Assembly (NCBI GenBank): GCA_015068445.1
Contig: SVKN01000003.1
Span: 3,088-67,087, forward strand
Origin: Oscillospiraceae bacterium
Lineage (GTDB): Bacteria; Bacillota; Clostridia; Oscillospirales; Butyricicoccaceae
Length of the DNA: 64,000 nucleotides
Reading direction: 5' to 3'
Positions 42,516 to 44,887 of this stretch are shown here, piece by piece. Position 1 is the first letter of the stretch. The number at the start of each line of letters is the position of its first letter. The translations under genes were made by a program, and so were the position numbers. The notes beneath the pieces were generated by a model. It was not told where the DNA came from, searched no databases, and saw only the letters and a list, made by a program, of their open reading frames with translations.

Positions 42516-42531
42516 CCACAAGATGTTGTTT
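42516..42531. promoter_or_regulatory. NrdR-box-like 16-mer (box 1)
   Basis: CCACAAGATGTTGTTT matches acaCwAtATaTwGtgt at 12/16 positions, including all six strongly conserved ones. A weaker copy CTTCAAGATGTTGGGA lies 41 bp downstream (42557-42572). Confidence 0.35.
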
Positions 42532-42644
42532 TCTCTTCCCCGTCTCCCCTCTCTCGCTTCAAGATGTTGGGAATCCGCCGCGTCAAAGAGCAGCGCCGGC
42601 GGAGCGGTTCTTTTGGGTATTCCGACGAAAATGAAAAAGAGGGC

Positions 42645-42672
42645 TTGCGTTCGCACATTTTGTGTGTATAAT
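42645..42672 (+). promoter_or_regulatory. promoter of the NrdD-like mini-protein gene
   Basis: TTGCGT - 16 nt - TATAAT. Confidence 0.5.
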
Positions 42673-42681
42673 AAAGATAGA

Positions 42682-42697
42682 CCACAAAATGTTGTAT
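42682..42697. promoter_or_regulatory. NrdR-box-like 16-mer (box 3), overlapping the transcription start / SD region
   Basis: CCACAAAATGTTGTAT matches the NrdR consensus at 12/16 positions with all conserved positions intact. It sits between the -10 and the SD. Confidence 0.35.
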
Positions 42698-42710
42698 GGA
42701 GGATCCTATC

Positions 42711-42971
42711 ATGACGATAAACGTAGAAGGCGGCGAGCTCTCCAAGAAGGAGATCCAGGCCTACATCGATTACATTCAGGACAAGAACCATCAGGTCGTG
42801 GACGAGCTGACCATCACCGTGGACGGCGAATACGTCGATCTGAACTACACCCTCGTCCCCGTCCCCTTCGAGCGCATCCGCCGCATCACCGGCTATCTGG
42901 TGGGCACCATGGACCGCTGGAACGACGCCAAGAAGGCCGAGGAGCGCGACAGGGTCAAGCACAGCCTGTAA
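42711..42971 (+). CDS. stand-alone NrdD-type glycyl-radical loop protein (86 aa)
   Basis: The C-terminal FERIRRITGYLVGTMDRWNDAKKAEERDRVKH matches the RxxGY...N.(G/A)K..E...R..H C-terminus of class III ribonucleotide reductase. The SD GGAGGA lies 7 nt before ATG 42711 and itself overlaps the tracked ATG at 42696. Confidence 0.6.
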   Translation: MTINVEGGELSKKEIQAYIDYIQDKNHQVVDELTITVDGEYVDLNYTLVPVPFERIRRITGYLVGTMDRWNDAKKAEERDRVKHSL

Positions 42972-42989: not shown

Positions 42990-43024
42990 AAAAGGGTTCC
43001 GCAGTCATGCGGAGCCCTTTTATT
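42990..43024 (+). terminator. intrinsic terminator
   Basis: AAAAGGGTTCCGC-AGTCAT-GCGGAGCCCTTTTATT. Confidence 0.75.
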
Positions 43025-43097: not shown

Positions 43098-44009
43098 ATG
43101 TCTACCTTTCAGACCATGCTGAACATGCAGCTGAGCCTGTTCGCCATCATGCTGGTGGGGTTCTTCTGCCGCAGGAAGAACATGATCGACACGAAGACCC
43201 GGGGCGTGCTGAGCGACCTGCTGATCAACGTGATCCTGCCCTGCAACATCATCAACTCCTTCCGCATCGAGGTGACGGAGCAGCTTTTAAGATCGATGGG
43301 GCTGGTGTTCGCTATTTTCATGGGCATTCAGTTCTTCTCCTGGGCGCTGAGCAAGGTGGCCTATACGAAGGTGCCCATGGACCAGCAGGTGATCCTGCGC
43401 CACGGCACCATCACCTCCAACGCGGGCTTTCTGGGCAACCCCATCGCCCAGGGCGTCTTCGGCTCTGAGGGACTGCTGTACGCCTCCATCGCGCTGATCC
43501 CTGTACGCATCTTCCTGTGGTCCGCGGGTCTGAGCCTGTACACCAAGACAGACAGCCGCTCCGTCATCAAAAACCTTCTGACCCACCCCTGCGTCATCGC
43601 CGTGTTCATCGGCTTCGGCTACATGTTCCTGCCCTTCGACCTGCCCGGCTTCATCCCCCGGACGCTCAGCTCCATCGGCGGCTGCACCACGGCCGTGTCC
43701 ATGCTGGTCATCGGCGGCATCCTGGCGGAGATCGACTTAAAGCGCATCCGCATGGGCCTGCTGAGCTACTACAGCTTCATCCGTCTGATCTTCATCCCCG
43801 CCTGTGTGTTCATCGTTCTGAAGCTGCTGCACGTGGACCCGCTGCTGACGGGCGTCAGCACGCTGCTGTCCGGCATGCCCTCGGCCTCCATGACCGCCGT
43901 GCTGGCGGCCAAGTACGGCCGCGACGCCGAGTTCGGCGCCCAGGTGGTGTTCGTCTCCACGGTGCTGAGCATGGTGACGATCCCGCTGATGACGCTGTTT
44001 TTTGATTAA
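43098..44009 (+). CDS. AEC (auxin efflux carrier) family transporter
   Basis: The N-terminus (LSLFAIMLVGFFCRRKNMIDTKTRGVLSDLLINVILPCNIINSF) is typical of the AEC / malate-permease-like family, with 10 TM. Confidence 0.85.
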   Translation: MSTFQTMLNMQLSLFAIMLVGFFCRRKNMIDTKTRGVLSDLLINVILPCNIINSFRIEVTEQLLRSMGLVFAIFMGIQFFSWALSKVAYTKVPMDQQVILRHGTITSNAGFLGNPIAQGVFGSEGLLYASIALIPVRIFLWSAGLSLYTKTDSRSVIKNLLTHPCVIAVFIGFGYMFLPFDLPGFIPRTLSSIGGCTTAVSMLVIGGILAEIDLKRIRMGLLSYYSFIRLIFIPACVFIVLKLLHVDPLLTGVSTLLSGMPSASMTAVLAAKYGRDAEFGAQVVFVSTVLSMVTIPLMTLFFD

Positions 44010-44206
44010 GTCAATATATTGCGGTCTGTAATCATTTTGCCCGCACATCTTGTGTTTCAGCGGGGCAAATCATCATTTTGACTAAATCTGAATCACAAAT
44101 TATTACGCGGAGTTTTAAAAAAATCCTTTACGGCAGGCCGATTTGGCGTTATACTGTTTTCGAGGCGTTTCGCCCTTTTACATACATCACACAACGGAGA
44201 AGCATC

Positions 44207-44887
44207 ATGGTCAACGATTTTCCACGGACCCTCTCACTGCTGAGGAAGGAAAAGAAAATAAGCCAGCGCAAGGCGGCGGGCGATCTGGGCGTGTCGCAGG
44301 CGCTGCTGTCTCACTACGAAAACGGCATGCGCGAGCCGGGCCTGGAGTTCCTCGTCAAGGTGGCCAATTACTACGGCGTGTCGGCCGACTATCTGCTGGG
44401 GCGCACCATGAGCCGCGACGGCAGCGCGCTGATCCCGGAGCAGCTTCCCGACGTGATGGAGCAGCGGGACCACACTCTGAAGGGCAGCGCCATGGCGCTG
44501 TTCACCCGCAAGGTGCTGACCAACAGCCTCTCCCTGTTTTTCGATATCCTCGGCCGGTGCGGCGACCGCACGCTGATCGCCGAATGCGGCCTTTACCTCT
44601 ACACCTCCATTTACAAGGTCTATCGCCATGTGTACGCCTACGGGCGCACGAACCCCGATTCAGCCTTCCCCATCCCCTACGACTATGTGGACGCCATGTG
44701 CGACATGCAGCTGAAAAAGTGCGAGCTGTCCCTGACCCGCGGCACGGAGCTGCGGCGCGAGGACGAGGCCGTGGCCGACCTGACCATCGACGCCCTGCAG
44801 TCGCGGTACCCGCAGCTGGCGCCCTCGATGCTCAACCTGCTGCACACGGTCTCCGACAACTTAGAGGGGAAAAAGAACGGGCTTTAA
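44207..44887 (+). CDS. XRE-family HTH regulator with an uncharacterised C-terminal domain
   Basis: LSLLRKEKKISQRKAAGDLGVSQALLSHYENGMREPGLEFLVKVANYYGVSADYLLGRT is an HTH_3 domain. Start moved to MVNDF; the upstream 43 codons have no support. Confidence 0.8.
   Translation: MVNDFPRTLSLLRKEKKISQRKAAGDLGVSQALLSHYENGMREPGLEFLVKVANYYGVSADYLLGRTMSRDGSALIPEQLPDVMEQRDHTLKGSAMALFTRKVLTNSLSLFFDILGRCGDRTLIAECGLYLYTSIYKVYRHVYAYGRTNPDSAFPIPYDYVDAMCDMQLKKCELSLTRGTELRREDEAVADLTIDALQSRYPQLAPSMLNLLHTVSDNLEGKKNGL

Follow-up and report, generated by a model that had tools for sequence, protein, structure and literature searches.

A stand-alone glycyl-radical module of anaerobic ribonucleotide reductase, a candidate spare part for NrdD in an Oscillospiraceae bacterium

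Results

A small gene encoding an NrdD-type glycyl-radical loop

The DNA analysed here (the window) is a stretch of 64,000 nucleotides from an Oscillospiraceae bacterium (GenBank assembly GCA_015068445.1, contig SVKN01000003.1, positions 3,088 to 67,087 of the forward strand), and the element under study is a coding sequence on its plus strand (42711–42971, stop codon included) whose 86-residue, cysteine-free product is called the mini-protein below. A preliminary description, made from the DNA letters alone, had read this product as the extreme C-terminus of NrdD, the catalytic protein of class III ribonucleotide reductase (RNR), without its Zn-ribbon and barrel. This reading was borne out by Pfam, NCBIfam and PDB, all of which align the last ~33 residues only. 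Residues 53–85 (FERIRRITGYLVGTMDRWNDAKKAEERDRVKHS; 42867–42965, plus strand) form an NrdD-type glycyl-radical loop, in which the RITGY radical motif is followed by an N..(A/G)K..E...R..H tail as at the NrdD C-terminus, and the predicted radical site, Gly61 (codon at 42891–42893, plus strand), aligns with G681 of E. coli NrdD. The Pfam family NRDD (PF13597) covers residues 53–84, corresponding to profile positions 533–562 of 562, with an E-value of 4e-8 that exceeds the gathering score; it was the sole significant Pfam family, and Gly_radical (PF01228) gave no match in the same scan even at E ≤ 10. Moreover, three NCBIfam NrdD equivalogs matched over their last ~32 positions only (52.6, 45.0 and 32.1 bits against cut-offs of 736, 764 and 326), and the sole PDB match by sequence was to residues 708–738 of the 743 residues of NrdD 8p23_A. 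The mini-protein thus falls outside the full-length NrdD equivalogs (TIGR02487/PF13597, with a barrel carrying the catalytic cysteine) and, having no cysteine at all, contains no Cys-based Zn-ribbon; the part of NrdD that it does possess is the C-terminal glycyl-radical loop.

The gene has its own expression signals. The promoter was present on the plus strand as previously read from the sequence (42645–42672), with the –35 hexamer TTGCGT at 42645–42650, a 16-nt spacer and the –10 hexamer TATAAT at 42667–42672. The –10 hexamer is a perfect consensus and the –35 hexamer agrees with the consensus at only 3/6 positions, which is why an automatic promoter scan omitted this promoter. A ribosome-binding site, GGAGG (42699–42703, plus strand), was read 7 nt 5' of the ATG at 42711; the in-frame ATG at 42696 was rejected as the start because it has no ribosome-binding site and homologues begin at the position equivalent to 42711. 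A strong intrinsic terminator, consisting of a 14-bp stem and a T-rich tail (42990–43021, plus strand), follows the gene, which is monocistronic. The exact protein sequence occurs on at least 19 contigs (P0001), and the region upstream of the gene is 98–100% identical within the species. In agreement with the preliminary description, tblastn with E. coli NrdD, NrdG and NrdR detected no nrdD, nrdG or nrdR in the window, and no nrd genes were found in the ~9 kb and ~6 kb that flank its two ends.

The mini-protein belongs to a large family with a conserved N-terminal domain

The mini-protein had been characterised as only a glycyl-radical loop. This is correct for its homology to NrdD, which is restricted to the loop, but overlooked the N-terminal half, which is a conserved folded domain. 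Residues 1–48 (42711–42854, plus strand) adopt a β-α-β-β fold in the AlphaFold2 model and are conserved in two family alignments (A1 and A2), in which E14, Y18, D38, G39 and Y46 are invariant; modelled alone, this domain was predicted confidently, with a predicted local distance difference test score (pLDDT) of 93.9. Fold searches with the whole model against the PDB, and with the N-domain model against the PDB and BFVD, returned no relative at E ≤ 0.001, the best candidates (a splicing endonuclease and YfiA/HPF) reaching only E ~0.03–0.06. Likewise, no significant family match to the N-domain residues emerged from scans of Pfam, NCBIfam and PHROG.

A word-indexed search retrieved thousands of full-length relatives of 86–99 residues, and at least 596 stretches matching the mini-protein were found in a scan of species-representative genomes. 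In an exhaustive profile search, 1,652 clusters at 50% identity were obtained at E ≤ 1e-10; the best 150 of them were all small proteins, and none of these representatives was an unsplit ancestor in the form of a long NrdD with the N-domain inserted. The TGY glycine is invariant in all 150 of these diverse representatives, as the preliminary description would have it, and the whole RITGY motif in 26/26 aligned members, with a loop consensus of FERxRRITGYLVGT..N..K.AEE.DR..H; a CxxC motif upstream of the loop was seen in just three of the 150. The hosts include Oscillospiraceae, Ruminococcus, Anaerovoracaceae, Christensenellaceae and Negativicutes, with Selenomonas, Anaerovibrio slackiae and Zhenpiania hominis as cultured examples, and public databases label the proteins "hypothetical" or "anaerobic ribonucleoside-triphosphate reductase". 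Judged by these alignments, the mini-protein is a member of a large undescribed family and not a stray fragment.

The mini-gene accompanies nrd genes and completes naturally split NrdDs

Of 80 genome loci whose neighbourhoods were counted, nine have the mini-gene beside nrdG or flanked by nrdD and nrdG, which ties the family to these genes. No conserved neighbour other than nrd genes was found across the family, and none of the genes flanking the mini-gene in the window (MatE, EamA, MnmA, Mem_trans, helix-turn-helix [HTH] and spermine-synthase-like) recurs beside it in other species, the one exception being the HTH gene, which does so in L005, the closest relative.

At four loci, L053 (Clostridia), L063 (Anaerovibrio), L041 (Megamonas) and L067, NrdD ends just past its CPxCG Zn-ribbon, without a RITGY loop. 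The mini-gene stands directly 3' of each of these truncated nrdD genes and is followed by nrdG, except at L067, whose nrdG occupies another position on the locus. The truncated NrdDs retain the catalytic-cysteine motifs (equivalents of E. coli C175 and C384), and just the glycine loop is gone. Class III RNR is inactive without its glycyl radical, and since these NrdDs have no loop of their own, the mini-protein must supply the radical in trans. A two-piece NrdD of this kind, with the mini-protein as the only glycine loop, was found at L041, L053, L063, L067, L090–92 and at phage loci; the window organism departs from it, its probable NrdD being full-length.

The arrangement is common among relatives. 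Among Selenomonadaceae NrdD clusters, the 120 nearest to the Anaerovibrio protein (≥76% identity) comprise 94 that are loop-less after the Zn-ribbon and 26 that are full-length with their own loop. The two forms occur as syntenic alternatives, MS-channel, nrdD (752 aa), mini-gene (94 aa) and nrdG in one and MS-channel, nrdD (778 aa) and nrdG without a mini-gene in the other, where the mechanosensitive (MS) channel was identified by C-terminal sequence similarity, with no family search. As far as gene content and sequence can tell, these naturally split lineages are the strongest evidence for the function of the family, and where NrdD is truncated the module is an obligate radical subunit.

A different arrangement was seen in the relative L016, whose gene order is nrdD (full-length), mini-gene, nrdG and nrdR, the only place where an nrdR gene was seen, beside nrdG. 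Here NrdD and the adjacent mini-protein share an identical 32-residue loop and their DNA differs at synonymous sites alone, indicating that both copies are constrained to one sequence by selection.

Several further features of these loci were recorded. The truncated NrdDs (P0121–P0240 from Selenomonadaceae; L041, L063 and L067) share a tail after the Zn-ribbon, ...GR[TS]EAxHxxRxVxPRxxCC..., with a histidine and C-terminal cysteines, and Cys-rich tails after ...VKH occur in some mini-proteins and NrdDs (...FMSECNCD in the NrdD and ...SLECSCAEF in the mini-protein of L016); these tails could be a metal, redox or docking site. At L054, L068 and L076 (Mitsuokella and Selenomonas) the slot contains an MS-channel-like gene, the mini-gene and nrdG with no nrdD between them, so that nrdD must be located elsewhere in those cultured or metagenome-assembled genomes. 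At L093:2926-5237 and L096:2820-5117, NrdD is broken 5' of the Zn-ribbon into two open reading frames (692 + 78 aa and 646 + 107 aa) followed by nrdG, probably by assembly frameshifts. Clusters P0311 and P0275 had resembled another kind of NrdD split, 5' of the Zn-ribbon, a reading that is less likely: P0311 consists mostly of contig-end fragments, and P0275, seen on a single contig (L096), resembles a broken gene call, as does L093.

A full-length NrdD probably belongs to the window organism

Metagenome contigs were scanned for a Zn-ribbon followed by a loop of the window type, yielding 32 full-length NrdDs. An earlier query, a chimera of a masked Zn-ribbon and the window loop, had been abandoned, giving only short C-terminal NrdD fragments from contig ends. 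The best-fitting locus is L134, which spans 13.7 kb with a GC fraction of 0.619 and carries nrdD (778 aa) and nrdG. This NrdD ends in ...CPRCGRRERDNGPKFERIRRITGYLVGTMDRWNDAKQAEERDRVKHSV, and 32/34 residues are identical to the loop of the mini-protein. The tetranucleotide composition of L134 correlates with that of the window at r = 0.979, within the 0.975–0.990 of confirmed same-genome loci. The exact NrdG of L134 and the exact PurC of the window were recovered from one pair of samples, ERZ27247018 and SRR7110574. In addition, a 99.5%-identical copy of L134 (L116, one of the 32) lies on Ga0208297_1000025 (420 kb), from the JGI sample that also contains the window's Ga0208297_1000012 (566.7 kb). 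The L116 NrdG cluster includes MBE6994964.1 of an NCBI metagenome-assembled genome (Ruminococcaceae), and a mini-protein identical to that of the window, MBE6993310.1 (E7423_01490), precedes it by 1,654 accessions under the same organism name. Furthermore, the 66 nt coding for FERIRRITGYLVGTMDRWNDAK, with which the loop-coding DNA begins, are 100% identical between L134:7904-7969 and window positions 42864–42929, whereas the next 36 nt differ at eight positions. From codon bias alone, such an identity of nrdD and mini-gene has P = 1.4e-4, and the pattern is suggestive of gene conversion or of a recent duplication. Relatives of similar GC content likewise have full-length NrdDs whose loops are nearly identical.

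Taken together, it is very probable that the NrdD of L134 is that of the window organism, in line with the earlier expectation that nrdD and nrdG lie elsewhere in this genome. This NrdD is full-length and has its own loop, and the mini-protein would therefore be supplementary here.

NrdR boxes upstream of the mini-gene

NrdR-like boxes had been described at 42516, 42557 and 42682. A position weight matrix was built from 34 boxes, taken from spaced pairs in the promoters of genuine nrdD genes at related loci, and scored over 63,985 window positions, among which these boxes ranked 1, 7 and 2, respectively. The distal boxes, CCACAAGATGTTGTTT (42516–42531; 19.2 bits, and 20/24 in a consensus scan) and CTTCAAGATGTTGGGA (42557–42572; 10.5 bits), are separated by a 25-bp spacer; together they reach 29.7 bits, more than any other spaced pair in the window. 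The second-best pair (sum 23.6 bits, distance 32 bp, 16-bp spacer) is proximal and overlaps the –35 hexamer, the promoter spacer and the 5' untranslated region; its first box, TTCGCACATTTTGTGT (42650–42665), is weak (rank 33, 6.5 bits) and covers part of the –35 hexamer and the spacer, and its second, CCACAAAATGTTGTAT (42682–42697; 17.1 bits), lies between the –10 hexamer and the ribosome-binding site. The mini-gene thus has both box matches to genuine RNR promoters and a paired spacing that overlaps its promoter, making it a putative member of the NrdR regulon. The best mini-gene boxes (19.2 and 17.1 bits) are on par with those of the probable cognate nrdD promoter (18.9 and 16.6 bits).

Functional NrdR sites fall into two spacer classes, of 15–16 bp and 25–26 bp (PMC12051234). 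Across the family, box-to-box distances formed sharp peaks at 31–32 bp and 41–43 bp over a flat background, which correspond to these published spacers. A spaced box pair was present within 300 bp upstream of 43/73 orphan mini-genes (59%) versus 1/833 control windows, and mini-genes inside nrdD operons had no box pair of their own.

Two other box pairs were observed. The probable nrdD promoter (L134:5487-5545) carries a pair spaced 43 bp start to start, with a 27-bp spacer, resembling the 41-bp distal pair of the mini-gene; long NrdR spacers have been described mainly for Streptococcus (PMC12051234). A third pair in the window (44009–44055), formed by AGTCAATATATTGCGG and CCCGCACATCTTGTGT 31 bp apart, has a sum of 21.8 bits and ranks third, the next pair reaching 12.1 bits. 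This pair falls in the interval from the end of the Mem_trans gene (43098–44009) to an XRE/HTH_3 regulator gene (~44207–44887), which is followed by a gene for a spermine-synthase-like membrane protein, and it may extend the putative NrdR regulon.

Phage copies of the module

At least 476 loci in IMG/VR contain a relative of the mini-protein, and neighbourhoods were counted at 80 of them (L137–L216), PHROG matches supporting their phage context. The mini-gene adjoins nrdD at 21 of the 80, with nrdG also present at 18 of those 21, and the NrdDs encoded there have no ATP-cone. All 15 NrdDs read from phage contigs are truncated after the Zn-ribbon, several ending in a vestigial ...EKVRRIK. The other 59 loci carry an orphan mini-gene, a parallel to Y06I, the phage-T4-borne module for pyruvate formate-lyase (PFL).

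Two viral loci illustrate the settings. At L162, genes for a virion protein, an exonuclease and a polymerase flank a cassette of truncated nrdD, mini-gene and nrdG (L162:4181-6751). At L166, an orphan mini-gene (L166:6001-6273) occupies a moron position between a tail-fibre gene and an endolysin gene.

Discussion

Our analysis points to the mini-protein as an autonomous glycyl-radical module of class III RNR that serves, in the window organism, as a supplementary spare for a full-length NrdD, and we put the probability of this reading at roughly 0.6. It builds on the loop homology, the conservation of the family, its linkage to nrd genes, the NrdR boxes and the natural systems in which the module is the sole glycine loop. 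The last 33 residues of the mini-protein are a copy of the radical loop in the probable NrdD of this organism, while the 48-residue N-terminal α/β domain would dock the module onto NrdD, beside the Zn-ribbon. The activase NrdG would be expected to abstract a hydrogen from Gly61, after which the loop would enter the NrdD barrel in trans and hand the radical to the catalytic cysteine. In this way the module could re-arm an NrdD that had lost its C-terminus, for example by glycyl-radical cleavage upon oxygen exposure, at a cost of 86 residues compared with 778 for a new NrdD. NrdR would co-repress the mini-gene with nrdDG, so that the module is made when the supply of deoxyribonucleoside triphosphates (dNTPs) falls.

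When oxygen reaches a glycyl-radical enzyme, the chain is cleaved at the radical glycine and the enzyme is destroyed. A loop-less NrdD together with a mini-protein evidently works in nature, oxygen cleavage would yield a loop-less NrdD, and replacing the loop is cheaper than replacing the enzyme; this combination leads to the spare-part reading. The preliminary description had proposed such a role. In the window organism it is consistent with the presence of an autonomous NrdD-type module beside a probable full-length NrdD, but it does not extend to the whole family, since in many bacteria and phages the mini-protein is no spare but the only glycine loop of a split NrdD. Where NrdD is intact, as in the window organism and L016, a spare part in the sense of GrcA/YfiD would be the best reading by analogy.

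That analogy is instructive in its likenesses and its limits. GrcA/YfiD of E. coli and Y06I of phage T4 are autonomous glycyl radical cofactors for PFL (PMC8683613, PMC13450708). Like the mini-protein, they are small stand-alone copies of the C-terminal glycyl-radical segment of a large enzyme, with a conserved glycine in an RxxGY-type motif, and they are encoded apart from that enzyme under their own promoter, phage versions existing for both. The shared logic would be that the module receives its radical from the cognate activase and then stands in for a C-terminus that has been lost. However, the loop of the mini-protein is of the NrdD and not the PFL type and lies outside PF01228, so that the protein does not belong to the GrcA/YfiD family (IPR011140); it has 86 residues compared with 127. 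The N-terminal half is disordered in YfiD (PMC8683613), whereas it is folded and conserved in the mini-protein, whose glycine segment models poorly. Moreover, the mini-protein family provides the sole glycine loop in many lineages, which has not been reported for GrcA. Compared with the NrdD C-terminal domain (PF13597; 8p23), only the last ~33 residues are homologous: the mini-protein has no Zn-ribbon, barrel or ATP-cone, and an unrelated 48-residue domain precedes its loop.

Another likeness is found in Aeromonas phage Aeh1, in which the class Ia nrdA is reportedly in pieces, split by a homing-endonuclease gene. In both cases an RNR catalytic gene consists of two reading frames whose products must reassemble, an arrangement frequent in phages. 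In contrast to Aeh1, the system described here is class III, its break lies just 5' of the radical loop and the gap holds no endonuclease gene; in addition, the small piece has acquired a domain of its own and is also encountered as an unlinked extra copy where NrdD is intact.

Other explanations were weighed against the spare-part reading. The module might be an obligate radical subunit in the window organism too, unlinked from an nrdD whose working product is loop-less. Split systems are common, and L068, L076 and L054, with the mini-gene beside nrdG and nrdD elsewhere, demonstrate that unlinked arrangements exist; the assignment of L134 to the window genome is, in addition, circumstantial. 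However, the best-fitting nrdD–nrdG locus, as judged by composition, shared samples, accession proximity and the 66-nt identity, encodes a full-length NrdD, as do relatives of similar GC content with near-identical loops, which renders this explanation unlikely. Slightly less likely again is a role as a regulator or decoy that competes for NrdG or fills the NrdD barrel, thereby buffering or limiting radical formation or storing the radical. Coexistence with a complete NrdD means that the mini-protein is not strictly required for activity, shared control by NrdR would be apt for a modulator that acts stoichiometrically, and the N-domain has no assigned function, all of which would be compatible with such a role; in lineages with a loop-less NrdD, however, the family must provide the radical, those NrdDs being conserved with their catalytic residues kept, and the strict identity of the mini-protein and NrdD loops is what functional substitution would predict.

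It is very improbable that the gene is a non-functional relic, left by duplication of the nrdD 3' end or by a phage cassette. The abundance of the family on predicted viral contigs (the ≥476 loci), the recent recombination suggested by the 66 nt shared with nrdD and the want of conserved neighbours besides nrd genes would fit such an origin, but the full length of the protein, including the N-domain that has no counterpart in NrdD, is conserved over hundreds of species with an invariant glycine. Furthermore, the gene is equipped with a promoter, a ribosome-binding site, a terminator and putative NrdR operators of its own, and its upstream region is nearly invariant within the species.

Several points weigh against the spare-part reading itself. 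The evidence that assigns L134 to the window genome converges but is circumstantial and does not come from one assembly. The NrdR co-regulation proposed earlier held in that the box pairs match the quality of the probable nrdD promoter, but it is not universal, as 41% of orphan mini-genes have no clear box pair and no recognisable NrdR boxes were found upstream of the mini-gene in the nearest other species (L005); NrdR co-regulation is, besides, not oxygen-specific. Modelled in isolation, the glycine segment has low confidence (pLDDT ~55). The natural truncated NrdDs end several residues 5' of the glycine and have conserved tails of their own, and are thus inexact mimics of an oxygen-cleaved NrdD. 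Finally, binding to NrdD, the status of the module as an NrdG substrate and the rescue of oxygen-cleaved NrdD are steps that we infer.

On a wider scale, class III RNR could have a dissociable, radical-carrying small subunit that had so far escaped recognition. In many Firmicutes and phages this would be a truncated NrdD with a module armed by NrdG; beside an intact NrdD the module would be an exchangeable cartridge, and phage orphans would re-arm or take over the host NrdD during infection. We give this broader proposal an even chance.

Among the classes of glycyl-radical enzymes, spare-part proteins had been identified for formate lyases only, according to a 2026 review (PMC13450708), and the 2021 study of YfiD merely speculated that others exist (PMC8683613). 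A full-text literature search found no report of a split or trans-acting NrdD glycyl-radical domain, consistent with the preliminary remark that no described NrdD-specific counterpart was known to its author. The family would thus provide a corresponding repair module for the enzyme with which anaerobes, among them the abundant Oscillospiraceae and Selenomonadaceae of gut and rumen, make their DNA precursors. The naturally split NrdDs offer a ready system for the study of radical transfer in trans and of substrate recognition by NrdG, and the presence of the module in phages suggests a new auxiliary role in supplying dNTPs. For annotation, thousands of nrdD genes that seem to have no glycine would not be broken, and short reading frames labelled "anaerobic RNR" or "hypothetical" would gain a defined role.

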